Source: Candidatus Aldehydirespirator sp. (lineage in GTDB: Bacteria; Actinomycetota; Acidimicrobiia; Acidimicrobiales; Aldehydirespiratoraceae). From it: a stretch of 64,000 nt of DNA. Shown here piece after piece: positions 15,686 to 64,000 of the stretch. The stretch spans positions 1,764,154-1,828,153 of the forward strand of contig OZ252146.1 in NCBI GenBank assembly GCA_965248735.1, in the 5' to 3' direction. The notes under the pieces are model-generated. The model was not told the DNA's origin, did no database searches, and worked only from the letters and a program-made list of their open reading frames with translations. The translations under genes and the position numbers were made by a program. Each line of letters opens with the position of its first letter. Position 1 is the stretch's first letter.

Positions 15686-16048
15686 ATGACATACACACTC
15701 CTAATCGCCGTCGTGGTATTCCTGGCGCTGCCGGCGGTGGCCGCGGCGGCCCGGATCGCCACGCACTACCGCTACGGAGCGCACGGCCGCCCCGACCTCG
15801 AGGCGGGCCACACGAGGGACCTGAGGCCGGCCGAGGCCTTCGTCCGTGCCCGGCACCCCTCGCAGCAGGTTCAGGGCGATGCGTCCGGCTCGCGGACCCG
15901 CACCAAGGATCGGCCTGCAACTCTGAGGCCCGTGTTCCATCTCGGTGCGACGCCAGCCCCCGAACAGCTCAGCCCCTGGCTGTCCGACGAGCACATCCGC
16001 AAGGCGTTCGACCTGGACACGCCCGACCATCGGGGCCGGGCGGCATAG
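15686..16048 (+). CDS. Hypothetical small membrane protein
   Basis: ATG at 15686 preceded by AAAAAAGGAGAAGAGGAA. N-terminal TM helix (LLIAVVVFLALPAVAAAA). No homology recognised. Confidence 0.4.
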   Translation: MTYTLLIAVVVFLALPAVAAAARIATHYRYGAHGRPDLEAGHTRDLRPAEAFVRARHPSQQVQGDASGSRTRTKDRPATLRPVFHLGATPAPEQLSPWLSDEHIRKAFDLDTPDHRGRAA

Positions 16049-16066
16049 GGACCTTCGCCCCCAAAC

Positions 16067-47573: not shown

Positions 47574-48863
47574 TCAGGCCGGCTGGAGGGGGGCGTCCCG
47601 TGGAGTGGTGGGCTTTGGGGTTGAGCCTCGGTGTTGGTTGCCGGGTGTGAGCTCGGCTGTGGCGATGGTATCGCGCTCGGGGCTGAGGGTGGCCATGGAG
47701 TGCTCTGAGAGGTAGCGGCGCTCGGTGGCCTGCCATTCGTCGTGGAGGTCGGCCAAGATGGCGCCGACGAGGCGGATGGCGGATGCTTCGTTGGGGAAGA
47801 TCCCCACGACGCGTGATCGGCGTTTGATCTCTTTGTTGATGCGTTCGAGTGGGTTGGTGGACCAGATCTTCTGCCAGTGGGCCCGAGGGAACGCGGCGAA
47901 GGCCAGCACCTCGGGCTTGGCGTTGGCCATGAGCGCTGCGACTTTGGGGAATCGGGCGCCGAGCTGGGCGGCGACTTCGTCCCAGGCGTCGCGCACGGCG
48001 TCGGCGTCGGGCTGCGCGAAGACGGTCCGGAACACTGCGGCGGCCATGTGCTGGTGGGTGCGGGGCACCAGCGCCAGAAGGTTGCGGATGAAGTGCACCC
48101 GGCATCGCTGGCGCCCGGCGCCCTGGATGGTGCGGTCCGCGGCGGCGCCGAGCCCGGCGTGGGCGTCGGCTATCACCAGGCGCACCCCGGTGAGCCCGCG
48201 GGCTCGCAGCGAGCCCAAGAAGTGCTGCCAGAACCCCTCGCTCTCGCTGTCGCCGATGTCGCAGCCCAGGATCTCCCGGTTGCCGTCGGTGGTGACGCCG
48301 GTGGCCACGACCATCGCCATCGAGACGACCTGGGAGACGCGGTTGCGCACCTTGAGGTAGGTCGCGTCCACATAGACGTAGGGGAACTCGACATGGTCCA
48401 GGCGCCGTCCCCGGAACGCCTCCACCATCTCGTCGAGCCCCGCGCAGATGCGCGACACCTCCGACTTCGATATCCCCGACTCCGCGCCCAGCGCGGCCAC
48501 CAGATCATCCACCGAGCGGGTGGACACCCCGGCCACATAGGCCTCCATGATGACCGCGTGCAGGGCCCGGTCGATGCGCCGGCGAGGCTCGAGCACCGAC
48601 GGCAACAACGAGCCCTTGCGCAGCTTGGGGATCCTCAACTCGACGTCGCCGGCCTGGGTGGCCAACAGCCGCGGCCTGTGCCCGTTGCGCTCATTCACAC
48701 GAGCGTCGCTGCGCTCATAGCGCCCCGCGCCGATCGCCTCGGTGACCTCGGCCTCGATCAGCTCCTGGAGCACCAGACGCACCGCGCCGCGCACCAGCTC
48801 CGCACCGCCACCGGCGCGAAACGTCTCCCACAGCTGTGCTGTGTCAGTATCAGAAAGGGTCAT
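47574..48863 (-). CDS. IS256-family (mutator-type) transposase
   Basis: ATG at 48863 after GAGGAGG. 429 aa with typical IS256 features (GVSTRSVDDLV, YLKVR, DAHAGL, QRCRVHFIRN, STNPLERINKEIKRR). The ORF runs through the IR and stops at 47574-47576 in flanking DNA. Confidence 0.9.
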   Translation of the reverse strand: MTLSDTDTAQLWETFRAGGGAELVRGAVRLVLQELIEAEVTEAIGAGRYERSDARVNERNGHRPRLLATQAGDVELRIPKLRKGSLLPSVLEPRRRIDRALHAVIMEAYVAGVSTRSVDDLVAALGAESGISKSEVSRICAGLDEMVEAFRGRRLDHVEFPYVYVDATYLKVRNRVSQVVSMAMVVATGVTTDGNREILGCDIGDSESEGFWQHFLGSLRARGLTGVRLVIADAHAGLGAAADRTIQGAGRQRCRVHFIRNLLALVPRTHQHMAAAVFRTVFAQPDADAVRDAWDEVAAQLGARFPKVAALMANAKPEVLAFAAFPRAHWQKIWSTNPLERINKEIKRRSRVVGIFPNEASAIRLVGAILADLHDEWQATERRYLSEHSMATLSPERDTIATAELTPGNQHRGSTPKPTTPRDAPLQPA

Positions 48864-48980
48864 CGGTGTGTCCTCCTCGATGAGTCGGTGATTTCTCTCA
48901 CCGAGGATCACGCCGATGACCCCCCTAGTGGTGGACCCCAGCGGCTACCTCAAACCCCACCACTCGGTGGGACACTGCCC
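47589..48980 (-). mobile_element. IS256-family insertion sequence (about 1.39 kb) with 8-bp target-site duplication GGCTGGAG
   Basis: Imperfect terminal IRs (GGGGGCGTCCCGTGGAGTGGTGGGC at 47589 vs the reverse complement of the 48980 end, GGGCAGTGTCCCACCGAGTGGTGGGG). GGCTGGAG at 47581-47588 and 48981-48988. Joining the flanks restores a sequence colinear with the uninterrupted paralogue at 46600-46625. Confidence 0.85.
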
Positions 48981-49430: not shown

Positions 49431-50156
49431 TCATGGCCGTGTTGACCACGAGAAAGGGATCGCAAGTTGGCGCTCCCACCAATGCGCTACCTCGGGACGC
49501 CAGTCCGGGTTTATCCGCCGCGCGATGACAACAACGGCTGACACTGCGGCACCTGCCTCTTCCAGTGCATAGGCAGCCGACTGCGACCTTGCCCCGGTGG
49601 TGAACACGTCGTCGAGCAGCAGCACGCGGCGTCCAGCGATTCTTGTTGTCGGCTCGAAGGCTTGACGGTTGGGCCTGCGGTGTGCCGTCTCACCGGGCCC
49701 TCGCCGGAGCAGTTGCTCGAGCGGGCCACAACGATCGGCTCCATTGTCCGAGAGTGCTCGCTCGAGTGGATGAGGCGGCTCGCGATCGGTGGAGGGCACG
49801 ACGCACACGGCGTCCCAACGTCCCAGACGGTCAGCGAGCGGTGCGCTGTGTTGGATGAAGAATCGCTCGACGAGCGCGGCGACCTCCCGGCTCAGTCGCC
49901 GGCGCGTCGACACATCCTCGCTGTCCTTGTAGTTCCGCAGTCGATCTCGCATCGGCGAGGGCTTCGCGTAGAGCGACATGGGCACCACCGGGCGGAGCGT
50001 CCCGAGGCTTTCACGGCAGACGGTGCAGCTGTCGCACAGTTCCGCTGTCTCATCGCGATGTCCCCGGCATATGGGGCAGACATCGGGGCCGTGCGTCGGA
50101 ACGGTGACGCAGTCGGGCGCGAGCGAGTCGCCGAGAGCGGCGAGCGCCGTGTTCAC
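49431..50156 (-). CDS. ComF-like phosphoribosyltransferase (PRTase) with N-terminal Cys-rich zinc-ribbon
   Basis: GTG at 50156, 1 nt after the dprA-like stop. CPICRG...CDSCTVC. PRPP-binding loop VLLLDDVFTTGARS. Confidence 0.8.
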   Translation of the reverse strand: MNTALAALGDSLAPDCVTVPTHGPDVCPICRGHRDETAELCDSCTVCRESLGTLRPVVPMSLYAKPSPMRDRLRNYKDSEDVSTRRRLSREVAALVERFFIQHSAPLADRLGRWDAVCVVPSTDREPPHPLERALSDNGADRCGPLEQLLRRGPGETAHRRPNRQAFEPTTRIAGRRVLLLDDVFTTGARSQSAAYALEEAGAAVSAVVVIARRINPDWRPEVAHWWERQLAIPFSWSTRP

Positions 50157-50157
50157 C

Positions 50158-51096
50158 TCAGGTCCGGAGGGCCAGGTCCCGGATCTCCGATATTGAGCAC
50201 ACCAGATGGACGTTGTCGTGAGCGGCGGCGAGCGAGCGTGCCCAGGGCCGTCTGCCCAGCACCGGCGCCCACAGCAGCACCGGCCGGTTGAACTCGAGGG
50301 TGTAATCCATCTCGATGCGAGTGCCGCTGAGCTCTTCGGCCTCGACGACGACGCTGGCACAGGACAGTCCGGCGGTCACAGCGTTGCGCGCCGGGAAGCT
50401 GGTCTTGGATGGGCGGAGGCCGGGAGGAAACTGCGACACGACTGCGCCGTTGAGGACGATCCGTTCGACGAGCGGGCGATTCTCCGGCGGGAAGACCACG
50501 TCGATGCCTGTGCCGACGACGGCAGTCGTGCGTCCGCCGGCGTCCAGAGCTCCGCAGTGCGCGGCGGTGTCGACACCCCGGGCGAGCCCGGAGACGACAG
50601 TTGTCCCGGCGTCGGCGAGGCGGGCGCCGAGCGAGCGTGCCGCATCGGTTGCCTGCTGGCTCGCGTCTCGGCTTCCGACGATGGCGATGGACTCCGCGCC
50701 GTTGCTGGCGAGCGAGCCGCGGACGAACAGGATCGCGGGCGCATGGGCCGTAGCCGAGAGCAGTTTCGGATAGTCCGGAGAATCGGCCAGGACGATATGG
50801 AAGTTGGCGTAGCGCATGAACAACCCGGCGAGGGCGGCTCGCCACTTGTCTGCACCGTCCTCAAGAGGCTCGTCGAACGGCAGGCGCTGCAGATCGTTCG
50901 CAGTCCACCAGCCGTCGCAGCGTTCGGTCTGCTCGGCCGACGCCAGCAGGTGCACGACCTGATCGTCGGACCAAGACCAGTCGAGGGGCGCATCGAAGCT
51001 GTCGCCGGTCGCGGTCGTCGTGCTACTCCTGCCTTCGTTTCCCCAGGTCGAATATACAACGCTTGCTCCGCCAGGCGAGCAGCTGCTGCGGCGCAC
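50158..51096 (-). CDS. dprA: DprA/Smf-family (DNA-processing protein A-like Rossmann) protein
   Basis: SIAIVGSRDAS...VVSGLARGVDTAAHCGALDAGGRTTAVVGTGIDVVFPPEN...FPARNAVTAGLS..VVVEAEELSG are canonical DprA motifs. The N-terminal boundary is uncertain (GTG at 51096 or a later GTG near 50990). Confidence 0.8.
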   Translation of the reverse strand: MRRSSCSPGGASVVYSTWGNEGRSSTTTATGDSFDAPLDWSWSDDQVVHLLASAEQTERCDGWWTANDLQRLPFDEPLEDGADKWRAALAGLFMRYANFHIVLADSPDYPKLLSATAHAPAILFVRGSLASNGAESIAIVGSRDASQQATDAARSLGARLADAGTTVVSGLARGVDTAAHCGALDAGGRTTAVVGTGIDVVFPPENRPLVERIVLNGAVVSQFPPGLRPSKTSFPARNAVTAGLSCASVVVEAEELSGTRIEMDYTLEFNRPVLLWAPVLGRRPWARSLAAAHDNVHLVCSISEIRDLALRT

Positions 51097-51395
51097 TCCT
51101 GTGGACTGCCGTGGCGGAGCAACTGGTAGTCGTGGCGGTCAACGGGCAACCCTCCGAGGCGGTAGTCCTCCAGACTCTCGTCGATCCGAGTCCATTCCTC
51201 AAGCGCCGAACCGCCGAATATGCCGACTGGGACTACTCCCAGTCCGTCCGCTCGTGCTCGCTCGATCTCGTCGGCCGTACCAGATCCGCCACCAACTGCT
51301 AGGACGATCGGATCGGCGGCCTCGCGGGCGATGGCGGTGATCGCGTCAGCTACGCCGGTGCGACTCACAAGCAGAGGGCCGTCGAGCGGTCCTCG
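51075..51395 (-). pseudogene. SLOG/LOG-like Rossmann fragment (GGGSGT motif) with no in-frame stop before it runs out of frame through the dprA-like gene
   Basis: Frame A reads ...VSRTGVADAITAIAREAADPIVLAVGGGSGTADEIERARADGLGVVPVGIFGGSALEEW...AAAAARLAEQALY, then continues as low-complexity read-through to 50376. Only about half a domain is present. Confidence 0.5.
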
Positions 51396-51592
51396 TCGGC
51401 GGCCTTCATGAAGTTGCGGCTCTTCCTGTTGCCAATGTGCAGAGTCACCGACTAGCCGCTGGATCGTGTGGCGAGCCACACGATCCCCGCCACACTCGCC
51501 GACCTCACGCACACCATCAAGGGCCCGGTCCAACGCGCGGCCAGAAACCGCTCCATCCGATCAGCCGCAGTGTCGCTGAGAGCCGCGGTGGC
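51372..51592 (-). pseudogene. N-terminal fragment (about 75 codons, internal stops) of a second HKD/PLD nuclease gene
   Basis: ALSDTAADRMERFLAARWTGPLMVCVRSASVAGIVWLATRSSG-stop-SVTLHIGNRKSRNFMKAADEDRSTALCL-stop parallels residues 2-75 of 43552-44250. DNA is alignable with 44060-44250. Confidence 0.75.
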
Positions 51593-51747
51593 GCTGGGGT
51601 TGTGCGGCTGGGCTGGCGCGGGCAGCTGGTTCTTGGCGCTCGCGACTGGTGGACAGAGCCTGGCAGGCCGAGACCAGCCGACATGGTCGCCCATTTGCAC
51701 GAAGGCAATCCGCCGCCGCAGGACCGCGACAGGCACTAGATTTCGCG

Positions 51748-52890
51748 CTATAGGCGTTCTCGCAGCACACCTATGATTCTGGTCTTGCCTTGATCTCCAA
51801 GAGGCTGAACTCCATTGTCACCTTGCCAAACCCCGACGGCCGGATCGAGCGCTTCATAGATGTGAAGGGCCACACTGCTCACGCGCTCGAAGTCAGTAGG
51901 CCAATCACTTGCATCTGCCAGTTCCACGATCTGTTCCGACTTATCGTCAAGATAATCGAGCCACTTGACGACGAGATCAGGTCCCAAGAGCGAATCTGAC
52001 TTGCTGCTGTTGACGCTACTTGTTGTGACTACGAAGTTCTCGATCGCCGACAGGCGAGTACGTGACCAAGGAATTACATGATCAAGTGAGATGTTGTCTC
52101 GCCGTATGTGCCGTCCCGTCAGTATGCATCGACTTCCCTGCAACTTCATTAGGCCGATGCGAATACTGTACGGTGGCATCATTCTATCTCGACCAAACAG
52201 ATGCTCGTGTATATCAAAGTCGAGCGCGTTCAGGTGTTCCCCATTGATCTTGGCCACCAGTTGCGCGAACCGGAATTCAATCAATGGACGAAGTACCCCA
52301 GAGTATTTCGTCAATTGTTGGGCAACGTTAGGAAGAAACTCTATCTGGTTGTTGTCGAACGTAAACAAGAAGGGATCAGGCTTTCCAGGAAGAACCTGTA
52401 ACCGTGTGACCGGATTCCGCCACAGATCCTTCTCGACGCGTGCTAGTGACTTGTCAAGTGCCTTCTCCCAATCGTTCTTCCACTCGGGGCTTCGCATCCT
52501 GTGGTCGACCACTTCGAAAGACTGGTGCTCAGAATCTCCAAGCGAACGCTGCCTCAGAAGATCGCGAAGCTCACGAACGTTCTGCATTACGGTTGTATCA
52601 TCAGCTACGGTGTCGTCCTTCCGCTTCTTCTTGCTTGAACTCTGGCGAAGCATCCTGTCTCGGTACGGGCGACCGTGTTCCCAATGTAGGTCTAGATATC
52701 GCTCTGCGAGTGCTCTTCTCGATATCGGTTGATTGTCTTGTATGTGTTCTGAAGCTAGGTCGATCAATGAAAGCAATAGTCCAAGCTTGTTCGTATCTGT
52801 CATGGACGCTCTGTCAAGTATCTCCAAGACACCTTGAATCGGATCGAGAGAAGGTCTATCTGAGTGATGTCCATTGCTCACCCGAGTCAC
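51748..52890 (-). CDS. HNH endonuclease-domain protein (380 aa), markedly lower GC than its neighbours
   Basis: GTG at 52890 lies 1 nt after the DruE-like stop. C-terminal HNH core CILTG...SLDHVIPWS...ENFVVTTSSVNSSKSD. By eye about half G+C versus about two-thirds in flanking genes. Confidence 0.8.
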   Translation of the reverse strand: MTRVSNGHHSDRPSLDPIQGVLEILDRASMTDTNKLGLLLSLIDLASEHIQDNQPISRRALAERYLDLHWEHGRPYRDRMLRQSSSKKKRKDDTVADDTTVMQNVRELRDLLRQRSLGDSEHQSFEVVDHRMRSPEWKNDWEKALDKSLARVEKDLWRNPVTRLQVLPGKPDPFLFTFDNNQIEFLPNVAQQLTKYSGVLRPLIEFRFAQLVAKINGEHLNALDFDIHEHLFGRDRMMPPYSIRIGLMKLQGSRCILTGRHIRRDNISLDHVIPWSRTRLSAIENFVVTTSSVNSSKSDSLLGPDLVVKWLDYLDDKSEQIVELADASDWPTDFERVSSVALHIYEALDPAVGVWQGDNGVQPLGDQGKTRIIGVLRERL

Positions 52891-52891
52891 T

Positions 52892-55800
52892 CTAGCTCTG
52901 TAGAGCAAGCAGGCCACCGAGCACCGCTTCAGCCTCACCGCGGGTCAGTTGGTCATGGAACTCTTGGTTGCGATAGCTCCGGACGCATCCGTAACAGCTT
53001 GTCCTCTTGGCGCAACTGCATCCATTAACGATCTCGTACGCGGCTTCCAGCAGGCGTTGGAGGTTGTCGCGAACGCACTTGACATGACCGGCTCCGCCCG
53101 GAACTGTGTCGAAAATGACCAACGTCTTGCGGTTGTAGGAACTTGTAGGCCCCAGGGTCCCGTCCACGTCTTCTGTCGGGATGCCCAAGGCGGGAGTTGC
53201 GGCCAGCAGAGCGTACAGCGTGCTTCGTGCCTGGGTGACGCTCATCGGTGCCATCAGATCCAGCTCGACTACATCGGTAAGGTATTGATGGCCCAAGTGG
53301 CGCACTCTGAGCAGCCCGCTGCATTCGCGACTAGTGCCGGGGCGGTGATGCGGAGCCGGCGCGTTGGGTGTTGCTTGGGCGACTGTGGGTTCGGTGTGGC
53401 CGCAGGACAAGCAGACCCGGAAGCCGCGTTCGGCTGGGCCGGTGTTGATCACCGTGATGCGCCCCTGTCGGCTGAACTGAGCCTGCACCCTTGAGCGCCC
53501 TATTCGGATTTCCTCGATGCCGGGGACGTCTCCGGCGTAGTCGCTGAAGTAGAACTGCGAGCGCCCCGCCCTCGGTGGCTGCGCTTCACCGGGTTGCTCG
53601 TTGCTGCGGCGGCCTATGAACCCGAACTGGGGAACGATGAACTTGCCGGTGGCGAACGCCCTGCCGCATCCTTGGCACAACTCAGGGGATTCCTCGTCGT
53701 TGTCGGCGGCGTCGATCCGGGTGCTGAATGAGCCGCATGCCTCGCACTCGGCGTAGCGGTAGCCGACTAGAGCCTTTCCCGGCAGTATCCGCAGGCCAGT
53801 GGATTCCCAGATCGCCTTGTCTGCCACAAGCTTGGATCCTGGCGCATACTCGGTGATGCCCATGCGCAGATCGCGCGAGAGGTCCAGCCCGGAGGCATCC
53901 CCGTCGCCTTGGCGCCATACGTCCAAGGTGACCACATCAACCGGAAAGCCGTACTTCGGGAGTACGACCCGCGTGGCTAGATGGTCGATAAGGCGCCGAC
54001 TCTCCAGAGTGGCCTTGACCTTGTATAGAGCGGCTTGGCGTCGTGTTTGCGCGGCGGCCTGGTTGTTGAGGTTCTGATCGCTCAAGTCCCGGATTCGTCT
54101 CGCCGTCTCTCCTATCTCGGCGTCGATCTCTTCGAGGTCGGAGCGGATCTCCTTGATTGCTCGCGCCAACCACCCGTAGTGCTCGCGGTCCGCACCGCCC
54201 TCGTCGTCCATCAGGTCTTGGACCCATCGCCAAGTGTGAATTCCCAGTTCCTCGGCGACTTCTTCTGGGGTGATCCGGGCAACCGCCGCGGCCAGATCGT
54301 CAGGGCGGCTCTGCAGCCACTCCACGAAGTCGTCGACCGCGGCAGGGGCGCCGTCCTGGCCGACGAAGAACGAGGCCACGTTGCCGTGAGGGTCGCCGCC
54401 TCGTTCGACGACGTGGCGGCGCTCGTAGGCGGCGAAGGCAACCGCGTGAATGTGGCGGCGCGCAATCAACGGATTCCGCAACGACAGGATCGGTACGCCG
54501 ACATGACCCTCGATCAGTCGCATCGGCTCCCTGAAGTGGTAGAGGTCGTGGCTTCGGCGGCGGGCGAAAGTGACGACCAGAGCCGGGGTTGAGGCGCGTC
54601 TGCCTGCGCGGCCCGCGCGCTGCACATAGTTCGCGGGCGACGGGGGAACGTTTCGCATCAGGACGGCCTTCACGTCGCCGAGGTCCACGCCGAGCTCGAA
54701 GGTGGTCGTGCAGCTCAATGCGTTTAGCTCGCCGTCCAGGAAATCCTGCTGGAACTGCCTGGCGCGCTGGGTCTCAAGCTGGCCGGTGTGCTCCTCGACC
54801 CTCATGCCCGAGGGCCTCAGCGTCGTGTAGAGGTGCCGGTAGTGCTCCGAGGACGGGCGACCCTCCATTCGAGCAGGTCGGAGCGTCCCGTCGCAGCACC
54901 ATGTGGGGCAGACGTCGGTCACACGGCGCCAAGCGATCTGGCGGCACTTGGAGCACTCGTAGGCGGGATGGTTCTCTGAGACCGGGATCATGGTGATCCA
55001 CTTCGGGTCGATCCTGAACACCGTCCCGTGCTGGCGGACATTCTCGGGCCGCAGCACCTTCTGCCACGGGTTGTTGGCGTCTGTCAGCCAGCGCCAGATC
55101 CCCTTGAGTGCCTCAAGAGGATCGGCGGTGATGCCGCGGCGGTCGAATACTTTGGTCAGGTAGTCGAGGCGGCTGTTGCGGCCTCGTGCCGGTAGCCAAG
55201 CCATCACCTTGTTTGCAGGGCGCCCCTGTCGTGCCGCAGTGACGATGTTGCGTGGGGCGAAGGCTTGGTCTTCGATGTCGACCCCCTCGGGAAGATGCAC
55301 TGCGGCTTGGCGCCGCAGCGTGTCGAGCAGCACTGCCGCAATGTCGATTGCTTCTTTCACGCTGAATCCCAGGTGTTGCAGAGCAGGCGGAGCGGTCACT
55401 GTCCGGGGCACGGCGACAGTGATCTCAGCGAGTCCGACGCCGTCGAGGCTCTGACGGCGGTCTGTTGCCAACACCTCGGCCATCAGCCAGAGGCGCACCT
55501 GTGTGTCTTTGGACCTGGAGCTGTCATCGGGGTCGATCACCAGGCGTTCCTCGGCCAGGCGGCGGATCACCGGCACCAGGTCCTCGAAGCGGAGCTCTTC
55601 GTCGCGATGCTGCTCCAGCGCGTGCCAGATCATGCGGCGCTGTACGGCGCGGGCATAAGTGCGGTCCAAGTAGGGCGCGAAGAACGCGGCGTCCTGCCGG
55701 CTATCTGAGAAGGTCAGCAGCTTGCGTCCCTCGCCGATGGCGGACACTCGGCCGGCGGGGGCCGGCTCAGGCGGAAGGGACTGGTAGAGGGCCGTCGCGA

Positions 55801-57742
55801 TTACGGAAACGGGCGCGTCGTGGCCGGTGAAGAACCTAAGCACGATCGCCGCGGTGGTGCGGCCCGAGCAAGCAGGGCAGCGCCGCAGCGGCTGCCCTCG
55901 CTTCGGCTTGGCGCACGTCACTCCGAGAGATGCTCCTGTGGCACCGCAGCCGCAGGGCTCGCCGATCTCATCGGACAGGTTCCCGCAGGCAGTGCACAGG
56001 CGTCGGCGGTCGACGTCAGCGATCACTTCGTCGTCGTCCACGACGGCTGCCTCGTCCTCGTCGTCGTCATCCACTTGATCGTCCAACAGGAGGTACAGCA
56101 GGCTGCGTTTCTGCGGGGGAGCCTGGCTGACCGTGATGTTCCCGTCTTCGTCCGGCGAGGCCGCGTCGCCGATCAGGTACGCCGCCGAGCAGCGGTTGCA
56201 GACCCCAAACTCGAACATCTGCGAGAGGACGCTCCGCTCTTCACAGTCCGGGCACGTCTGGTGGCGTTCGAGACGCAGGCGCGGCGCTCCGGTGGGATGC
56301 TTCGGGGACTTGCAAAGGAACGCGCCTTCGAGGGCTCGGAGCATGTAGTGGTAGCGCGCTGGCACCAGCGGGGCGGCGTTGCCGTGGGCGTTGGCGCAGA
56401 CTCCGAGCAGCGCGTCGAGTTCGTCGACTCGATGCTGGTCTGCGAACACTCGGGTCTCGATCTCTGAGGCGTCGAGTGGCCCGTCGCGCAGCAGCCTGCG
56501 GAGTCTGAGCACATGCTGCTCCGAGCCGAGCGCCTCGATCAGCGAGAGAGTGTCGCCGTCTCGCTGCGGCGCAGAGGTTGCAGGCACTAGGGCACCTACA
56601 TCGTCGCGGACGTGGCCGGATGCGAGCGCCTCGGCGAAGGCATGAAAGGCCCCTTCGGGCGCCTTCCATTGGGAAGAGGGTACCGGCTGTGGTTCCAGTA
56701 CGGGGGTGACGATGTCCTGGCGGCGTTCGTCATGGCTGTGGTGCTCGACTCGTTCGCCGAAGAGATCTTTCGCGTACTCGGCTATCCGCAATGCGGCGTC
56801 GCTGCCAGTACCGAGTGTCGCGGACGTCCCGACGAAGCGGAGGCGCCCATGTCTGCTCTCATTGACGCGATCTCGTAGCCGCCTGAGCAGCATCGCGATC
56901 TCTGCACCCCGGGCGCCGTTGTAGATGTGCATTTCGTCGAGTACCACGAATCGCCAGTGCTGACCGGTCGGGCCGTCGAAGAACGCAGTGTCTGCCGGAC
57001 GCAACAGGAGGTACTCCAGCATGGCGTAGTTGGTCAGAAGAACATTCGGCGGGGTGTCGCGCATCTGCTCCCGCGAGACAAGCTCCCCCGGGTCCGGGTC
57101 AGCGCCGATGCGGCTGCGGTGTTCCTGTTCGCCTTCGTTACGGCGCTCCGGGGTGGCGCCGGTGTAGCGGCCATATGTGATCTCGGGGAACGGTCGCAGG
57201 AGCCCGCGGATTCGGTTCAGCTGGTCGTTGGCCAGCGCGTTCATCGGGTACAGCAGCATCGCCCGCACTCCGGGCTCGGCCAGGGTGTTGGAGTCGGCCT
57301 CTCTGAGTAGGTGGTCCACTATCGGCAGCAGGTAGCACTCGGTCTTCCCGGAACCGGTGCCGGTCGCGATCACGAGGTTGCGTCCCTCGGCGGCCTTGCG
57401 GAGCGCCGTCTCCTGATGACTGTGTAGCGGCCGGTCCGGCGGCAGGACTCCAGGGTCGAGATCGCGCAAACGCGGGTGCATCAGACCCTCCGCGACCAGC
57501 GACTTGAGCGAACGCCCCATGCGATAGGCGGACGCAGCCTCTAGGAACGGACCGCGGTCACTCTCAAACTGGCTTCCGAGAGCGTTGTAGAGTTCTGCTC
57601 GCAACCTGTCGTCGGCGGGAGCGTAGCGTGCTCTCAGATAACGCAGGTACGAGTTGCCGATGAGCCGGGATGCCCCTATGGGGTCAAGGACCTGCGGTGC
57701 GGCGGCGCCTGGGCGCTCGTCCATGGCGGGTGCAACTTTCAT
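52892..57742 (-). CDS. druE: Very large DEAD/DEAH-box helicase with multiple zinc ribbons and a C-terminal DUF1998 (MrfA-type) domain; DruE-like
   Basis: 1,616 aa. Motif I ATGTGSGKT, motif II VLDEMH, TSATLG, motif VI QRAGRAGRR. Several CxxC pairs. C-terminal NGCSCAKRTSCYGCVRSYRNQEFHDQLTRGEA is typical of DUF1998. ATGA overlap with the upstream gene. Confidence 0.85.
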   Translation of the reverse strand: MKVAPAMDERPGAAAPQVLDPIGASRLIGNSYLRYLRARYAPADDRLRAELYNALGSQFESDRGPFLEAASAYRMGRSLKSLVAEGLMHPRLRDLDPGVLPPDRPLHSHQETALRKAAEGRNLVIATGTGSGKTECYLLPIVDHLLREADSNTLAEPGVRAMLLYPMNALANDQLNRIRGLLRPFPEITYGRYTGATPERRNEGEQEHRSRIGADPDPGELVSREQMRDTPPNVLLTNYAMLEYLLLRPADTAFFDGPTGQHWRFVVLDEMHIYNGARGAEIAMLLRRLRDRVNESRHGRLRFVGTSATLGTGSDAALRIAEYAKDLFGERVEHHSHDERRQDIVTPVLEPQPVPSSQWKAPEGAFHAFAEALASGHVRDDVGALVPATSAPQRDGDTLSLIEALGSEQHVLRLRRLLRDGPLDASEIETRVFADQHRVDELDALLGVCANAHGNAAPLVPARYHYMLRALEGAFLCKSPKHPTGAPRLRLERHQTCPDCEERSVLSQMFEFGVCNRCSAAYLIGDAASPDEDGNITVSQAPPQKRSLLYLLLDDQVDDDDEDEAAVVDDDEVIADVDRRRLCTACGNLSDEIGEPCGCGATGASLGVTCAKPKRGQPLRRCPACSGRTTAAIVLRFFTGHDAPVSVIATALYQSLPPEPAPAGRVSAIGEGRKLLTFSDSRQDAAFFAPYLDRTYARAVQRRMIWHALEQHRDEELRFEDLVPVIRRLAEERLVIDPDDSSRSKDTQVRLWLMAEVLATDRRQSLDGVGLAEITVAVPRTVTAPPALQHLGFSVKEAIDIAAVLLDTLRRQAAVHLPEGVDIEDQAFAPRNIVTAARQGRPANKVMAWLPARGRNSRLDYLTKVFDRRGITADPLEALKGIWRWLTDANNPWQKVLRPENVRQHGTVFRIDPKWITMIPVSENHPAYECSKCRQIAWRRVTDVCPTWCCDGTLRPARMEGRPSSEHYRHLYTTLRPSGMRVEEHTGQLETQRARQFQQDFLDGELNALSCTTTFELGVDLGDVKAVLMRNVPPSPANYVQRAGRAGRRASTPALVVTFARRRSHDLYHFREPMRLIEGHVGVPILSLRNPLIARRHIHAVAFAAYERRHVVERGGDPHGNVASFFVGQDGAPAAVDDFVEWLQSRPDDLAAAVARITPEEVAEELGIHTWRWVQDLMDDEGGADREHYGWLARAIKEIRSDLEEIDAEIGETARRIRDLSDQNLNNQAAAQTRRQAALYKVKATLESRRLIDHLATRVVLPKYGFPVDVVTLDVWRQGDGDASGLDLSRDLRMGITEYAPGSKLVADKAIWESTGLRILPGKALVGYRYAECEACGSFSTRIDAADNDEESPELCQGCGRAFATGKFIVPQFGFIGRRSNEQPGEAQPPRAGRSQFYFSDYAGDVPGIEEIRIGRSRVQAQFSRQGRITVINTGPAERGFRVCLSCGHTEPTVAQATPNAPAPHHRPGTSRECSGLLRVRHLGHQYLTDVVELDLMAPMSVTQARSTLYALLAATPALGIPTEDVDGTLGPTSSYNRKTLVIFDTVPGGAGHVKCVRDNLQRLLEAAYEIVNGCSCAKRTSCYGCVRSYRNQEFHDQLTRGEAEAVLGGLLALQS

Positions 57743-60700
57743 TGGCGGGCCGCTGCGTGAAGCGTTGCCACTGCTGTGAGCAGGCTGCGTGTCGTTAGCA
57801 GCGGCGCGATCTCCGCTGCTTCTAGCACAGCGCGCTCCGCCGTCTCCCGATTTGCCCGGCTGGCGAACTCGTCGGTGACCTTGAAGGCCGCGATGAGAAT
57901 CCTCGCCGGGAACTTGTGCCAGCCTGGAGTACCGGCGGCGGGGCTCAGAGCCTCGATCTGTTGTTGCTGCGTCTCGCTGAGACGCTGCGTGTATGTGGTG
58001 ACTCTGGTGTGGGCGGACATCCAGTCGTTCAACTTCGCTCGGTCCGGCCAGCTCCGCTTGAGCATTTCGAGCGCCGCGATCATATATCCGCCGAATTGCA
58101 AGGGCAGCGAACCCATGGGCGGCAGGGCGTCAGAGAGAGCGTCGAGCCTGCGCGGCTCCAATTCGTCCAGCGGTTGGCTCACAGGTTGCGGTGGCTGCTC
58201 CGGGCCGTCGGCACTAGCTGCGGGGATCCAGCCGGCGAAACTCTTCCAACGGGCCTCGCCATCGTCGTCAAGCACGCGGTCAAACACAGCAGCGGCGATA
58301 GGGGCAGCCTCCCAGAGCACCTCCAGCGTCCGCGGATCCGCCGCGTGGCGGCCAGCGACGGGCATTAACGCGAGCGCCAGCCTCATGAGAGCGTCTGGCG
58401 GCAGCGACCACGCCAGATCCTCGGCGAGCATCTGCGCCATGAGTCCGTCAACGGCCTCGGCAAACTGGAGCAATCTATTCAATGCGGCGATATCGGACCG
58501 GCTGCGACAGGACGCCGCGATCGCCTCCTGTAACTCGGTACGCGCCTCGGCGACGCAGCGGCTGTCGACCTTGGTTGCGCGCCGACTTCCCGACACTGCG
58601 AGTTCCAGAGCCTCAACGGCGACATCGGGCCGCAGCGCCTTGATCTGGGCACTCTCGTCCGTGGCCGATCCCACTCTGACTGTGTCCGTGTCTGCGTCGC
58701 CGGGGGATGGCCGTCGAGGGGCGGTCCAGTCGTCGCGCAACGCGACCTGAGTGATGTACGGACCCGGAGGTGCATCCACGACGCAGTCGAAGTACCCATC
58801 GATGTTATCGAGTATGTCTTCACGCACCGGCTGAGCCCAAGGACGGTGCAACGACCAGAGCCTCAGCTCTCGCCCCCTGAATCGCCTGTTCTCAGTCCAC
58901 CGAACCCCCAGGAGCGCATTGCCAGCCTCGGCGTCCGCTACGATCTCGACCGCGACGTCGGATACCTCGTAGAGCGCCTCGATGACTGCTGCTGGCGCTT
59001 GGGTGCCGTCGGCATCGACCGTCAGGCTCAGTCTCGCCAGCCCCGACGAGGAGACAGTGTCGCGGAACTGAGACAGAGGGAAGGCCCAGCGGCCACGCTC
59101 ACCGCCGGCTCGAATAGGGCCGGCTTCTTGGAGAGCGTCGCTTGCCAGCAGTTGCAGAGCCACACGGGCAGGTCTGCCGCAGCGGACCATCAATGACTCC
59201 ACCTCGCCGGACTCGATCTCGTCGATGCCGATCCGCTGGGTTACTCCGCCGAACACGGGCAGAGCCTCGCCCCGACGGCTAACGGCCCACGAGAGTCTCG
59301 GGATCTTGACCTTCAACTCCACGGCGTTCGCCAAAATGTCGGAGCTGTCGCAGCCTGGAGCGAATTCGACAGTTACGTCGCGGCCGCTGCTGCCGTCAGG
59401 GCAGGTCAGGAGGCAGCTGGCGTGCAGTGTTGCTCGCACGGTCTCATCGGGGCCAACGATGCGATCGGGCAATGCGACATGCAGGTCTCTCACCACGGTG
59501 ACACGCTCGCGCAGGTCGCTGCCCAGCGGTCCGACGACCTCGACGGTTCCGGAGAAGGCGTCGTCGTTGGGAAGCCTCGGGGACAGGTCTCGGCCCTGCG
59601 CGCAGCGAGGCAGGTTGTCGAGTATCGCGGTCCCAGGAGGACCACTCTCGTTGTCGGAGCGCCACCGGACCCGCCACGCCGCAGCGGCTGTCACTTCGGG
59701 TTCTGAGACCACGGGCGCATCGGAATAAACAGCACAGTCGAGTGGGCCGGTCACGCCGCCGACAGGGCTCGACGTGATGGCAGGCCCGGGGTCGGGGCGC
59801 GACACGGGCAGCTTGATCTTGCTGGGTCCGTCGAGGCTGTGGGGGTTGCACAGTGAGATCGCCGTGAGCTCGGAGGTGTCGACGTGCCATAGCTTCCATC
59901 CGTGCCATGTATCGGAGCGGGCGGGCAGTTCCTCCACGAGCGGGACCGGTGTTCCGTCCTCGCTGGCGATCTGGATATCTAGGGCCGCCAATATCAACGC
60001 CTGGCTGCCGCGTACTTGCCGTTGCTCGCGTGTCAGACGCCCCGCTGCGTCGAAGATGTACGCCGCCGCATCCGGATGTCCGGCGAAGCGCGATCTGGCT
60101 TCAATGGCGCGTGAGCGCAGCGTGACGCTCCATCCCCGCGCTGGGGTGAGGGGGACTTCGTGAGTGTCGCGCTGCAACGCCTTGTAGCGGCTCGCGGAAC
60201 TTCCCGTCAGGAGCCATTCGCCGCCGTCAACGACGGGGCGCAGCACAAGGTACGGCCCGTTGCACGAGTAACGGTCGATCCGAACCTGCGGACGAGGTGA
60301 GCGGCGCCCTAGTGCAGCTTTGCCCAAGGATCCGCCATCGAGCAGTGCCTGCATGAGGTAGGTAGGCAGGCCGAGATCCTCCGCCATCTCCGTTACCGAT
60401 GCGCTGGCGATGCCTGTTCCGACCGCCTCGGTGTCGAACACCGCCGTGATCATCCGCTGTACCAGGTCCAGGGCGAACTCGCCGCCGTAGGTGAAGAAGC
60501 GTTGCAGCGGCCGGGTGATCTGAGCGCCCCGCGCCGATGAGCGCAGCACGCTGTCGATCAGATCAGTCGCGTCCTGCAGTCCGCTGCGCAGGTTTGTTCG
60601 CACAAGTTCCGCAGCATCCTGGGCGCAGCTCGCCGGAATCCCGCCATGCAGGAGGATCGGTGTGACGAAACGAAGCCAGCGGCCTGCCTCTGGGACGTCG

Positions 60701-61098
60701 TTGAAGTCCTCGAGTCCCAACTCGCAGACAGCCGCCTCGAACGCTTCGCCCACAATTGAGCTGACCCTGGGGTTGGAGCTTTCAAGCGACTCGATGTTGG
60801 GCCAGAAGGTTCCGTCGTCATAGCATCGGCCACCTTCGCCGACCAGGAACACCGCTGTGACCGCGGGATAGCTGCGTAGGCGCGAGTAATCGCCTGACTT
60901 GGTGGCGCCCATGAAGACCCACCGGGCCATCTGGAAGATGCTTCCCTCAGGCGAGAGATCCAGTTCTCCAACAAGGCGCCGGCCGCGCAACAGGCTACGA
61001 AGCCGCTGTTCGGTGTCCAAAGGGTTCGTACGGTCCCAAGCCGAGACGCCCATGGTACTGGTCGGAGCGCTGCCCGCCGGTGACCTCGTTGTGGTCAT
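57739..61098 (-). CDS. Large protein of unknown function (about 1,120 aa) translationally coupled to the DruE-like helicase; DruH-like by position and size
   Basis: Continuous ORF to 61263. The first ~55 codons are Arg/Pro/Gly-rich and unconvincing, so the ATG at 61098 (or 61053) is preferred. I recognise no catalytic motif. Confidence 0.7.
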   Translation of the reverse strand: MTTTRSPAGSAPTSTMGVSAWDRTNPLDTEQRLRSLLRGRRLVGELDLSPEGSIFQMARWVFMGATKSGDYSRLRSYPAVTAVFLVGEGGRCYDDGTFWPNIESLESSNPRVSSIVGEAFEAAVCELGLEDFNDVPEAGRWLRFVTPILLHGGIPASCAQDAAELVRTNLRSGLQDATDLIDSVLRSSARGAQITRPLQRFFTYGGEFALDLVQRMITAVFDTEAVGTGIASASVTEMAEDLGLPTYLMQALLDGGSLGKAALGRRSPRPQVRIDRYSCNGPYLVLRPVVDGGEWLLTGSSASRYKALQRDTHEVPLTPARGWSVTLRSRAIEARSRFAGHPDAAAYIFDAAGRLTREQRQVRGSQALILAALDIQIASEDGTPVPLVEELPARSDTWHGWKLWHVDTSELTAISLCNPHSLDGPSKIKLPVSRPDPGPAITSSPVGGVTGPLDCAVYSDAPVVSEPEVTAAAAWRVRWRSDNESGPPGTAILDNLPRCAQGRDLSPRLPNDDAFSGTVEVVGPLGSDLRERVTVVRDLHVALPDRIVGPDETVRATLHASCLLTCPDGSSGRDVTVEFAPGCDSSDILANAVELKVKIPRLSWAVSRRGEALPVFGGVTQRIGIDEIESGEVESLMVRCGRPARVALQLLASDALQEAGPIRAGGERGRWAFPLSQFRDTVSSSGLARLSLTVDADGTQAPAAVIEALYEVSDVAVEIVADAEAGNALLGVRWTENRRFRGRELRLWSLHRPWAQPVREDILDNIDGYFDCVVDAPPGPYITQVALRDDWTAPRRPSPGDADTDTVRVGSATDESAQIKALRPDVAVEALELAVSGSRRATKVDSRCVAEARTELQEAIAASCRSRSDIAALNRLLQFAEAVDGLMAQMLAEDLAWSLPPDALMRLALALMPVAGRHAADPRTLEVLWEAAPIAAAVFDRVLDDDGEARWKSFAGWIPAASADGPEQPPQPVSQPLDELEPRRLDALSDALPPMGSLPLQFGGYMIAALEMLKRSWPDRAKLNDWMSAHTRVTTYTQRLSETQQQQIEALSPAAGTPGWHKFPARILIAAFKVTDEFASRANRETAERAVLEAAEIAPLLTTRSLLTAVATLHAAARQ

Positions 61099-61430
61099 CG
61101 GAGGCCGCGCTGTGGCTGGCGGAGAGCCAGGCCTCCGCGGTGAAGCCGCCAGCCGGCAGCGCTGGTTGGCAACCGCCTGCGTACTCCCCCCGAGCCCTCG
61201 ACCAACTTCTGCACTCCAACGCTGATGACGGGTGTCGAGAGAGTACAACCCGGAGTGAAGCATCGTCGGAACTCATGGATGGGGACCGTTTGTGCATCAA
61301 TGTCTTATGGGCGTTCTGGTTACCGGGCATGTTCAAGAATGGCTTGCGGGTGACGTTGCAAAGGCGAGAGAAGCCCGAGACAGTGCTACTTGCTGTGACA
61401 GCCACAGCATCCTGCCGTCAGGGGCTTCGG

Positions 61431-61914
61431 TCACCTTCCTCGGGTCCCGCTCCGCCAAGCGATGTCCCGCAGCCCTGTGATCAACTTGTAGAAGGCTCCT
61501 CTGTGGACCTGCTCATGAATCCGGTCATCGACCTTGACGACCCGCGGGGCGTGCAGCAGCCACAGCGCGCCCGGGTCCTCCATGTAGGGGTCCCAGCCGC
61601 CCTCACCGAACAGCGCCCGGCCCCTGCGGGTGGGCACGCACCTCACCTCCCGTCCCCGGGCGTTGTGCGGGTCGTCGGCGATCAGCCTCGCGGCGGTCCC
61701 CCAGAAGCGGATGGCCCGCACCATGTTCTTGCACTCCGATCTCCACCGGAGCGTCGGCGCGATTGAAGACCTCGGGAGTGTCGGCGACATGGCTATGCGC
61801 CTTGCGGAACCAGCTGTAGCGAGGATGGAACGTCTCATGCCACGCGAACGAGCGCGCCGCCGCCTTCGCCAGCCTCACCGGCTGGCCTAGCAATCTCTTC
61901 GGCCACGGCAGCAA
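61431..61914 (-). pseudogene. DUF4007-like gene, frameshifted and probably C-terminally truncated
   Basis: Frame 1: FAWHETFHPRYSWFRKAHSHVADTPEVFNRADAPVEIGV. Frame 2: KNMVRAIRFWGTAARLIADDP...GALWLLH. Together these form the DUF4007 N-terminal signature (F-x-HE-x-F, LGVGKNMV-x-S-x-R-x-W, LWLLHW) as I recall it. A 1-nt indel lies near 61730-61736. Confidence 0.6.
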
Positions 61915-62039
61915 CGTACTCCACCGGTACGACAGGCTGGCTGATCGCTATGGAGCGGCTGGCCTTGCTCTCGGCACAGGATGGCAGACGAGGCGTAGAC
62001 GGGTGTGGCGAATAGTGACGAGCAATGTATTATCGCTAT

Positions 62040-62333
62040 ATGACATCAGATTATCCGGACTCGGCTGTGTTGATGGACGGCTCCGTGCCGCTCGGCGGGG
62101 TGTACGCCAACCTCGTTCACGTCTGGCACACGGCCTTGGAGTTCACCGTGGAGTTCGCTGTCTCGCTCCCCTCTGGGCCGGACATGCCTGGCGCGGTGTG
62201 CGTGGCGTGGATGAAGGTTCCGCCGCAGGTGGCGTGGGATCTGGCGAGGCTTCTGTCCGATCACGTCGCGGAATATGAGGAAGAATATGGTAGGTTCACA
62301 CCAAGACCACCTGATGATGAAGAGTTATCATGA
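62040..62333 (+). CDS. DUF3467-family protein
   Basis: GVYANLVHVWHTALEFTVEFA matches the DUF3467 core (YANxxxVxHxxxEFxLDF) as I recall it. ATG at 62040 (or 62025). ATGA overlap with the next gene. Confidence 0.6.
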   Translation: MTSDYPDSAVLMDGSVPLGGVYANLVHVWHTALEFTVEFAVSLPSGPDMPGAVCVAWMKVPPQVAWDLARLLSDHVAEYEEEYGRFTPRPPDDEELS

Positions 62334-62557
62334 AGTTCATTCACGTACTGGGCTCCAATCGCCTTGTGTACCAATGGAATCGATCTCTTGAGCCATTCGT
62401 TCCAACCGAGGAGGACCGGAAGAAGCTCTATCGGATGGCTGAGGCCTACGACGAGGCAGAACACGAGCGCGTCGTCAGGCTCGCGTTCCCTTCGCCTCCT
62501 CCCGAATCCTCCTGTGTGTTCACGCCACGTCCGCCCGATGGGGAGGGGCAGTCATGA
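62330..62557 (+). CDS. Small hypothetical protein, paralogue a (RMAEAYDEAEHERVVRLAFP motif)
   Basis: 75 aa. Overlapping ATGA junctions on both sides. Shares a 30-aa core with the next gene. Confidence 0.5.
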   Translation: MKFIHVLGSNRLVYQWNRSLEPFVPTEEDRKKLYRMAEAYDEAEHERVVRLAFPSPPPESSCVFTPRPPDGEGQS

Positions 62558-62739
62558 GGATCGTCTTTGGCAGGCCTCCAGAGGGCTACGTGTTCGCCGT
62601 GCAAGGTTCAATCCCGCCGCCTGACCCAACCCCGGAGCAGCGAGAGAGGATGCGCCGGATGGCCGAGAACTACGACGAGGCAGAGCACGAGCGGATAGTC
62701 AGGATGGCGTTCCCGGCCCGTCCGCCCGGGTCCTCCTAG
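62554..62739 (+). CDS. Small hypothetical protein, paralogue b (RMAENYDEAEHERIVRMAFP motif)
   Basis: 61 aa. PTPEQRERMRRMAENYDEAEHERIVRMAFPARPP parallels PTEEDRKKLYRMAEAYDEAEHERVVRLAFPSPPP. Confidence 0.5.
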   Translation: MRIVFGRPPEGYVFAVQGSIPPPDPTPEQRERMRRMAENYDEAEHERIVRMAFPARPPGSS

Positions 62740-62831: not shown

Positions 62832-63041
62832 ATGACGACGACTCGGACTACCTTCACTCTGGACGAGAAGCTGGCCGAGAGGGCCCGTCAGCTCAACATC
62901 AACATCTCGGCAGCCGCCCGCGAGGGGGTCGTCGCCGCGGTTAAGCGGGCCATGGGCGCGGCGGATCGAGCGGCGTACCAGCGATTCCCGGAGCAGCCCG
63001 ACGGCTTCTGGGACGACGCTGAAGCGTGGGGAGCCGAGTGA
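62832..63041 (+). CDS. Type II antitoxin (RHH/CcdA-like), cognate of the downstream MazF
   Basis: TFTLDEKLAERARQLNINISAAAREGVVAAV pattern. GTGA overlap with the toxin gene. Confidence 0.7.
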   Translation: MTTTRTTFTLDEKLAERARQLNINISAAAREGVVAAVKRAMGAADRAAYQRFPEQPDGFWDDAEAWGAE

Positions 63042-63346
63042 ACCGCGGCGACGTGTGGTGGGCTGAGATCGGGCGCAAGAGACGGCCAGTGCTTGTTCTC
63101 ACTCGTCCCGAAGTCATCGACGTGCGCGAGTTGGTCACAGTCGCTGAAATCACCAGCACGGTTCGGGGGCTCGCTGTTGAGGTCCCACTACCGAATTTCG
63201 TGCCCGGCCTTGCGGACGGGTCAGTGGTGAACTGCGACGGCTTGCACACGGTACGGCGCTCGTCGCTGTCAGATCGCGCCGGCGAGTTGGGTGACCGGAC
63301 GATGCGAGCTGTGTGTCGAGCCGTGACCTACGCCCTCGGCTGCTGA
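63038..63346 (+). CDS. mazF: MazF/PemK-family endoribonuclease toxin
   Basis: VNRGDVWWAEIGRKRRPVLVLT...VTVAEITSTVRGLAVEVPL...GSVVNCDGLHTV is the typical MazF SH3-like barrel pattern. Confidence 0.85.
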   Translation: MNRGDVWWAEIGRKRRPVLVLTRPEVIDVRELVTVAEITSTVRGLAVEVPLPNFVPGLADGSVVNCDGLHTVRRSSLSDRAGELGDRTMRAVCRAVTYALGC

Positions 63347-63385: not shown

Positions 63386-63778
63386 TTATGGCTCGACTCG
63401 GTTGACCGTGGGGACCCTATCGATGGTTCGGTCGAACGATGCGATGTCGCCGACACTGGCGGTTTCGGCTACCGCGACCAGGTAGGCGTCGCTGAAGTCG
63501 ATCCGATGGACCTCGTAGACCTCGACAGCCCGCAGCAGCACCGTGGGATCCACGGTCTGGATGCTGGCGAACGTGATGATCGATCGGGCGAGCTCGGCCA
63601 CCCGGTCCCTGGGAACCTCGCAGAAGGACTCCAGCACATACACGACTTCGGCCAGGATCAAGTCCGGCAGTATCAGTGCCTGGGCTGCAGCGAGGTAGGC
63701 AGTGGCCCGAGCGGCCAGGTCGGGTGGGTCGCCTGTTAGGTGACGCACGAGCACATTGGTGTCCAGCAGGGCTGTCAT
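63386..63778 (-). CDS. vapC: VapC (PIN-domain) toxin
   Basis: ATG at 63778 (MTALLDTNVLVRHL). Further acidic positions (LAEVVY, FSDAYLVAVA, SFDRT). ATGA overlap with the upstream antitoxin stop. Confidence 0.85.
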   Translation of the reverse strand: MTALLDTNVLVRHLTGDPPDLAARATAYLAAAQALILPDLILAEVVYVLESFCEVPRDRVAELARSIITFASIQTVDPTVLLRAVEVYEVHRIDFSDAYLVAVAETASVGDIASFDRTIDRVPTVNRVEP

Positions 63779-64000
63779 CGAGCCCGTTGCGCCCGCCGGT
63801 CCCGGGCTGCCAGGCGCACTTCGTCCCAATCCGCGCCTCGCTTGGCCGCGGGCACCTCCACCGTGCCGGCCATCTCCAGCAGGTCGGGGGTCCGGGCCAT
63901 GATCGCCCGATGCTGCTCCACCCTGAATACCACCTGATCTCCAGTCTCCAATGCCAGCGCCTCGCGCACTGCCTTGGGAATCGTCACCTGGCCCTTCGAA
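63775..64000 (-). CDS. vapB: AbrB/SpoVT-family VapB antitoxin, 5' end cut by the window edge
   Basis: ...SKGQVTIPKAVREALALETGDQVVF swapped-hairpin motif. The reading frame is still open at 64000. Confidence 0.75.
   Translation of the reverse strand, partial: SKGQVTIPKAVREALALETGDQVVFRVEQHRAIMARTPDLLEMAGTVEVPAAKRGADWDEVRLAARDRRAQRAR

Follow-up and report, generated by a model that had tools for sequence, protein, structure and literature searches.

Druantia type III is among the commonest defence systems of bacteria, and work on its mechanism has been done almost entirely on the form found in Escherichia coli and Pseudomonas, whose helicase DruE bears phospholipase D (PLD) domains. In this III-A form, DruH (YjiT / STY4851 family) is paired with a DruE of about 2,100 residues, which ends in a tandem PLD region of about 390 residues. 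A compact form, III-B, consists of a DruE without nuclease together with DruH (bioRxiv 10.1101/2025.09.15.676423; mentioned in 10.64898/2026.05.13.724758), and most helicases of this branch carry no nuclease according to a survey of the YprA family (bioRxiv 10.1101/2025.09.15.676423). The PLD-less pair of Mycolicibacterium smegmatis (MSMEG_1253, 1,132 residues; MSMEG_1254, 1,667 residues) defends against many mycobacteriophages and needs contact between DruH and DruE; it blocks the circularisation and replication of phage DNA, and its DruH is toxic alone and neutralised by DruE (PMC13316683). The subject of this study is a pair of genes from Candidatus Aldehydirespirator sp. (assembly GCA_965248735.1, contig OZ252146.1), which encode a DruE-family helicase and a large partner protein. 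They lie in a stretch of 64,000 nucleotides, hereafter the window. The locus is very probably a compact, nuclease-less two-gene Druantia type III (III-B-type) anti-phage module, of a kind already described. An earlier note on this DNA had proposed a Druantia type III DruH-DruE pair, and this reading is supported, with the specification that the form is the PLD-less III-B type and not the III-A type of E. coli. Its remark on a poorly understood mechanism no longer holds in full, as five papers of 2026 address how Druantia III works. The locus is a clean and intact nuclease-less example from a little-studied actinobacterial class, and it bears on the question of how a DruE without its own nuclease stops phage. 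Apart from the annotation gap that concerns the partner family, it is an ordinary resident of a defence island.

The two genes (Table 1) are two long open reading frames (ORFs) of the minus strand that occupy 52892-61263, in a region with a guanine plus cytosine (GC) content of about 65%. The strand, the ATGA overlap and the protein sizes agree with the earlier description, and the overlap between the stop of the partner gene and the start of the helicase gene reads CAATGAAAG. There is thus a single accessory gene for a protein of about 1,100 residues, directly upstream of druE and co-directional with it. The longest possible partner ORF, 57739-61263, would encode 1,174 residues. The start at 61098 is reasonable because the gene call in the closest relative (locus L082) begins at the equivalent base and because conservation in the partner family sets in at about residue 25 of the protein read from this start; the ATG at 61053 is a possible alternative.

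The partner and DruE genes are translationally coupled and co-inherited across phyla. A survey in which one genome per species was scanned gave 80 loci with relatives of the partner, distributed over Acidimicrobiia (Actinomycetota), Chloroflexota, Gemmatimonadota, Bacillota, and Planctomycetota. By tblastn, a DruE-type helicase adjoins the partner relative in 60 of the 80 loci, or in 60 of the 62 informative ones; among the 20 loci without an adjacent DruE, 18 end at a contig edge, one (L044) is a gene fragment, and L032 alone is a true exception, as far as its DNA is available. The partner family comprises 1,856 clusters (50% identity) at E<=1e-3 and 935 at E<=1e-30, and tblastn did not find the partner in 72,556 plasmids. 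The best matches across the locus are metagenome-assembled genomes of Acidimicrobiia, which makes a host of this class probable, and the partner of the closest relative is 78% identical.

The helicase belongs to the DruE family. Against PADLOC it matches DruE1 at 1.8e-189 (631 bits, residues 206-1606 covered) and DruE3 at 4.4e-182 (606 bits), and all seven DruE models match at <=1e-119; the next families, DpdJ, SngC, BrxH, and DrmA, stay below 100 bits. Pfam reports DEAD, Helicase_C, and MZB (the renamed DUF1998, 8e-12). The MZB domain lies at about 1517-1587, and the C-terminus follows 29 residues later, at residue 1616. Motif I (GSGKT, 130-134), motif II (DEMH, 269-272), and motif VI (QRAGRAGR, 1041-1048) are intact, and nine CxxC pairs are present, including CLSC-1444 and CYGC-1583. 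These pairs and the MZB domain account for the superfamily 2 (SF2) helicase with several zinc ribbons and a C-terminal DUF1998 that had been noted earlier. The best relative with a solved structure is PDB 9tu7_Y, a DEAD/DEAH helicase of 2,108 residues (E 1.5e-81). The orthologues carry the Pfam domains YjiV_N, DEAD, Helicase_C, and MZB; a local Pfam scan did not report YjiV_N (PF27116) for the window helicase, and the domain is precomputed on orthologues that are 64-84% identical (L082, L083, L084, and L086).

What distinguishes this helicase from the E. coli protein is its C-terminal end. When it was aligned to E. coli DruE (reference sequence taken from plasmid CP057056.1), residues 109-709 and 951-1608 paired with residues 96-674 and 1044-1712 of 2104, and the two cores are 25-28% identical over about 1,250 residues. 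In this alignment there is no counterpart of E. coli DruE 1713-2104, the segment holding the tandem PLDs, and the DruE3 profile was matched only up to position 1673 of 2055. Neither a PLD nor another nuclease domain was found in the helicase by PADLOC, Pfam, or the alignment to E. coli DruE. The protein is a DruE with intact ATPase and zinc-binding motifs and without a nuclease domain. As to the two nearest relatives, DruE of L082 is disrupted by the insertion of an ISL3 transposase (14769-16061), and that of L083 (13368-18198) is split into pieces of 1,299 and 134 residues; the window copy is intact.

The partner protein matched no Pfam or NCBIfam family and no PADLOC model, the latter even at E values up to 10, in accordance with the earlier statement that it has no recognisable catalytic motif, and 15 relatives of the partner were also negative against the curated models. 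This failure is not due to absent models, because E. coli DruH, taken as positive control, is recognised by ten PADLOC DruH3 hidden Markov models (HMMs) and by NCBIfam NF038336 (YjiT / STY4851 family). The similarity to DruH, missed by the PADLOC and NCBIfam models, was however recovered when alignments were compared with alignments, at hhalign probabilities of 91-94%. One refuting condition of the earlier note, a large protein without DruH similarity, is thus half triggered. The comparison of a 28-sequence alignment of the partner family (A1) with a 28-sequence alignment of canonical DruH (A2) gave Prob 91.2% and E 9.9e-7 over 655 collinear columns; a local run gave Prob 93.9% and E 1.5e-7, with end-to-end extension at low stringency. 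Likewise, a 164-sequence partner profile matched canonical DruH at 93.3% and E 2.8e-7, mostly in the N-terminal domain. The controls (a reversed template and eight block-shuffled ones) failed: their Prob was <=0.8%, and they scored 18-28 where the real pair scored 79. Alignment against alignment was the only form that succeeded, as the comparison with the lone E. coli DruH sequence gave Prob 0.1%. The invariant H151-G-G-I-P155 of the partner aligns with the invariant (E)-G-G-L-P at 135-139 of canonical DruH, GG[IL]P being invariant in both families, and opposite the invariant E75 of canonical DruH stands E88 of the partner, which is 79% conserved.

The predicted fold agrees with this relationship. 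The AlphaFold2 model of the partner (mean pLDDT 86.6) begins with a helical domain (about 26-254) and ends with another (812-1118); the beta-sandwich region between them (about 271-809, some 540 residues) groups into about six immunoglobulin (Ig)-like domains. Cryo-electron microscopy of DruH has described an N-terminal helical domain, six domains of Ig-like type, and, at the C-terminus, another helical domain (bioRxiv 10.64898/2026.05.12.722862, 10.64898/2026.05.13.724313). The AlphaFold and Foldseek check proposed for the protein of about 1,120 residues thus returned a DruH-like layout and multi-Ig matches. Foldseek searches of PDB and BFVD found only generic multi-Ig proteins, at TM-scores <=0.13, and the published DruH work likewise reports multi-Ig proteins alone; no structural match to DruH itself was obtained in a PDB copy that apparently held no DruH structure, and the profile of the partner family had no match among PDB sequences. 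Because profile-profile comparison, architecture, and gene linkage are three independent lines that tie the partner to DruH, the partner is a remote but real DruH homologue with the same three-part architecture.

The locus has the features of Druantia type III, except that its partner is not recognised by the curated DruH models. It shares with III-B the order of two genes, partner and then helicase, a DruE that ends at DUF1998/MZB without PLD or Vsr, and a partner without annotated domain. The M. smegmatis pair is likewise actinobacterial and encoded by overlapping genes, its proteins are nearly of the sizes seen here, and the domains of its DruE are limited to DEAD, Helicase_C, and DUF1998 (PMC13316683); the spacing of motifs I and II differs, being K119-D225 there and K133-D269 here. 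A 28-residue C-terminal peptide of M. smegmatis DruH, derived from primers in PMC13316683, matches, at E 0.0019 among 12 peptides, a collinear position of the A1-family profile, a weak hint on which one should not rely; the other primer-derived peptides matched neither family HMM, and a homologue search with the peptides gave nothing significant. The III-A systems of E. coli and Pseudomonas aeruginosa have the same gene order and coupling. E. coli DruH is also of 1,119 residues, with the same helical, six-Ig-like, and helical architecture, the GG[IL]P motif, and the aligned conserved Glu. They differ in the PLD region that the window DruE lacks and in a DruH that is linked to the partner by profile-profile comparison only. 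In formal terms, PADLOC's best match is the DruE HMM of type I, whereas no DruA, DruB, DruC, or DruD occurs among the scanned neighbours, as would be expected of Druantia type I (DruA-E), and the partner has the architecture of DruH. More broadly, DruA-D, DruM, DruF, and DruG were all absent from the flanking ORFs scanned with PADLOC.

How such a pair may act can be proposed by analogy. The DruE of E. coli and P. aeruginosa is, in published work, an ATP-dependent 3'-to-5' DNA helicase which dimerises and engages single-stranded DNA (ssDNA) regions or single-strand/double-strand junctions of phage replication or recombination intermediates. DruH has been described in one report as an ssDNA-binding protein with a pocket competed by ATP, in a second as a 3'-5' exonuclease whose N-terminal helical domain bears a conserved cleft, and in a third as a dimerisation-dependent nuclease and likely phage sensor. 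The PLD active site of III-A was essential in one study and dispensable in another. By comparison with these proteins, the window DruE would load where phage DNA in replication or recombination is single-stranded or has single-strand/double-strand junctions, and would unwind it 3'-to-5' using ATP. The DruH-like protein would bind the displaced ssDNA through its helical domains (E88 and HGGIP lie there) and possibly trim it as a 3'-5' exonuclease, and its Ig-like array may serve as a scaffold and sensor that contacts DruE. The phage genome would most likely be neutralised by unwinding together with DruH-mediated processing, processing by host nucleases, or both, an assignment made because the fused PLD nuclease is absent from this DruE; it is in this manner that the PLD-less M. 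smegmatis pair blocks the phage genome from circularising and replicating.

Several points weigh against this reading of the locus. No curated DruH model (10 PADLOC HMMs and NF038336) detects the partner, and HMMER sequence-profile searches with both families in both directions were insignificant (best E 0.011 and 0.051); the homology of partner and DruH therefore rests on profile-profile comparison and architecture. The canonical DruH motif LYAYR has no aligned counterpart in the partner family, and the ssDNA/ATP pocket of E. coli DruH (Y670, N672, Y733, H1062, R1064, and K1067) is unconserved at the aligned positions, though alignment is unreliable at such a distance. The published studies also conflict on the nuclease activity of DruH and on the need for PLD domains. 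The assignment to III-B was made by the published description of that form, whose representative is GIH50614.1. Similarly, M. smegmatis DruH is likened to the partner by its size and description, and the comparison is compatible with its belonging to this subfamily or to the canonical one. The anti-phage function of the window pair is predicted from its relatives.

What is conserved is the pair of genes and nothing around it. Among 106 ORFs that flank it in 38 loci, a Pfam census found no family with more than 3 occurrences and no recurring third family, and HNH and Mrr-type nucleases occurred twice each. The neighbourhoods of other loci hold a ribosomal-protein operon, type IIG restriction-modification genes, transposases, and TraG. 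The earlier note had placed the pair between an HNH gene downstream and a DUF4007-like gene upstream; both are real and outside the conserved module, but the DUF4007-like one is present only as a frameshifted remnant of SspB, and the comparison of neighbourhoods that it had suggested found neither kept across related loci. The HNH gene and the SspB remnant are neighbours of the pair in the island. Tblastn over 86 loci and the census led to the rejection of HNH, the PLD protein, and the Ssp genes as conserved accessories.

The HNH gene starts at 52803, which leaves a gap of 88 nucleotides after the DruE stop and no overlap. Its GC content is low, at 51% (51-54% for the cassette), where the pair and the neighbours have about 65%. 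The match of its protein to PDB is confined to the Cas9-type HNH motif, and its reading as a ScoMcrA-type phosphorothioate-dependent enzyme was rejected by sequence, as only this motif matches solved structures. In L082, a 77%-identical HNH gene follows immediately on SspA, SspC, and SspD and lies upstream of the gene for the DruH-like protein. The order is hence circularly permuted, DruH-DruE-HNH in the window and HNH-DruH-DruE in L082 (window 51743-52914, L082 8336-9507), with the junction inside the last codons of DruE, which suggests a mobile or homing HNH gene, or the movement of a cassette via a circular or tandem intermediate. A rival reading is a variant with three genes: the HNH protein encoded next to the pair, or the DrmC-like PLD protein encoded further downstream, would supply the missing nuclease of DruE in trans, and the HNH, DruH-like, and DruE genes would form one cassette; the nuclease-less DruE, the permuted adjacency of HNH, and the presence of a DrmC-like PLD ORF in the same island of both genomes (L082 21014-21694) are consistent with it. 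It is quite unlikely, given that the other 84 related loci have neither the HNH nor the PLD gene within 10 kb of the pair, that HNH and Mrr-type nucleases are so rare in the census, that the low GC content of the HNH gene fits an independently mobile selfish endonuclease, and that most helicases of this branch are stated to have no nuclease anyway. The most fitting reading of the HNH gene is an endonuclease cassette that moves on its own.

The SspB remnant directly upstream of the pair raises a related question, namely whether an Ssp-type system of DNA phosphorothioation had the pair as its restriction arm and has since lost its ssp modification genes here. About 100 N-terminal residues of SspB remain over two frames (61603-61914 and 61431-61838), matching positions 44-98 of 288 of the DUF4007 profile, and the remnant ends between 61431 and 61267, the latter being the point where homology to the L082 Druantia cassette starts. 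In L082, SspA (426 bits), SspC (1,035 bits), and SspD (363 bits) lie directly upstream of HNH-DruH-DruE (L082 2226-8284), without an obvious SspB; the window retains the truncated SspB on the same side, and tblastn with the L082 SspA, SspC, and SspD did not find them in the window, so it differs from an SspABCD system in holding only a truncated and frameshifted SspB. Decay of the ssp module seems to be taking a different course in each of the two lineages. A functional tie to it is highly improbable, since the same three proteins yielded one weak cysteine-desulfurase match by tblastn in the other 80+ loci, the pair elsewhere adjoins ribosomal operons, type IIG restriction-modification genes, and transposases, and unrelated systems commonly co-locate in defence islands; moreover, the pair is intact though the ssp genes are gone and therefore does not depend on them. 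Ssp is best read as a neighbouring island resident in this lineage. The probability is slighter still that the helicase is a housekeeping repair enzyme of the MrfA/Lhr type beside an unrelated large protein, or a helicase of the DISARM/ARMADA type. DruE does fall within the YprA/MrfA superfamily, and a search of PDB sequences matched MrfA/YprA (6znp) at 5.8e-20 and Lhr at 8.7e-15; DpdJ and DrmA models also match weakly, those of DrmA at 8e-19 (65 bits) over about 70 residues only. The mitomycin-repair pair MrfAB (YprAB) shares the SF2 core and MZB, the 3'-5' polarity of characterised relatives, and a helicase partner which one group reports as a 3'-5' exonuclease. The DruE models, however, score 10-fold above any other, while the NCBIfam MrfA-like model TIGR03817 reaches 161 bits against a cut-off of 874 and the Lhr-like equivalog is likewise far under its cut-off; by these scores the helicase groups with DruE, and not with the repair or DISARM helicases whose grouping the earlier note had named as refuting. 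The window helicase is also twice the size of that of MrfAB, with extra inserted domains and zinc ribbons in a defence-island context, and no MrfB-like gene is found among the neighbours scanned; helicase and DUF1998 are fused in one protein, whereas DISARM has separate DrmA and DrmB. No DrmB/C/MI, BrxHII, or PglX partner is present among the scanned neighbours, the partner is strictly linked to DruE across phyla, and the island holds defence genes and mobile elements.

With the locus taken as a two-gene III-B-type module, its partner points to a gap in annotation. A large DruH clade appears to be absent from the annotation models that were run. The partner family is invisible to PADLOC 2.0, NCBIfam, and Pfam DruH families, and automated annotation would thus report an orphan DruE; a profile of the family (A1 or the 164-sequence set) in defence-finder libraries would recover many such systems. 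A wider version of this idea is that the partner represents a broad DruH clade missed by defence-annotation models, so that PLD-less Druantia III is systematically under-counted, and that a mobile HNH gene was possibly recruited to compensate in trans for the missing PLD, with HNH-DruH-DruE moving as a unit. Such joint movement is hinted at because the gene order is circularly permuted in two relatives, and the version as a whole is unlikely.

Table 1. Coordinates of the gene pair and of the neighbouring features in the window.
Feature	Position	Strand	Details
DruH-like partner gene	57739..61098	-	1,119 aa; ORF and translation
DruE-family SF2 (YprA/MrfA-like) helicase gene	52892..57742	-	1,616 aa
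ATGA stop/start overlap of partner and helicase genes	57739..57742	-	Direct sequence reading
HNH_4 protein gene (context, unconserved)	51748..52803	-	351 aa; Pfam HNH_4; C-terminal Cas9-type HNH motif
SspB/DUF4007 remnant (context)	61431..61914	-	PADLOC SspB 2e-20; Pfam DUF4007
DrmC-like stand-alone PLD ORF	43552-44250	-	232 aa; weak PADLOC DrmC matches, under Pfam cut-off
IS256/Mutator-family transposase, intact	47574-48911	-	Pfam 6e-139
ShosA (DprA-like) and ShosT-like pair, overlapping	49431-51096	-	ShosA 198 bits, 6.4e-59; ShosT-like phosphoribosyltransferase weak, 2.9e-07
DrmC-like gene remnant	51349-51584		237 nt, 72% identical to the 5' end of the gene; just below the HNH gene
CcdA-like antitoxin and PemK/MazF toxin pair	62832-63346	+	
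PIN-domain (VapC-like) ORF and AbrB-type antitoxin ORF	63386-63987	-	Sequence reading only

The 20 kb around the pair form an island of defence genes and mobile elements. PADLOC gave matches only for SspB, ShosA/ShosT, DrmC-like, and Cas9-HNH proteins among the flanking ORFs, and the ShosA and ShosT-like ORFs are a probable ShosTA toxin-antitoxin defence pair. The DrmC-like PLD ORF, 8.6 kb from the pair, is 76% identical to its L082 counterpart, which lies 1.4 kb downstream of DruE there. The stretch between the DrmC-like gene and its remnant, which includes ShosTA, IS256, and others, looks like later insertions. The island is flanked by the two type II toxin-antitoxin pairs listed in Table 1.

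Three small consecutive ORFs of 102, 75, and 61 residues lie on the plus strand at 62025-62739, the first with DUF3467; the 75- and 61-residue ones repeat RMAE(N/A)YDEAEHER(I/V)VR(M/L)AFP and look like a tandemly duplicated small gene. An ORF of 2,656 residues on the minus strand (26442-34412), without PADLOC match, has fibronectin-III-like repeats and C-terminal SLH similarity to Sap of Bacillus anthracis, and is probably a giant cell-surface protein. Elsewhere in the window, ARAGORN reports an 88-nucleotide tRNA-Arg(CCG) on the minus strand at 6848-6935, possibly a false positive, within a plus-strand ORF (6509-7717) of strong third-position GC bias.

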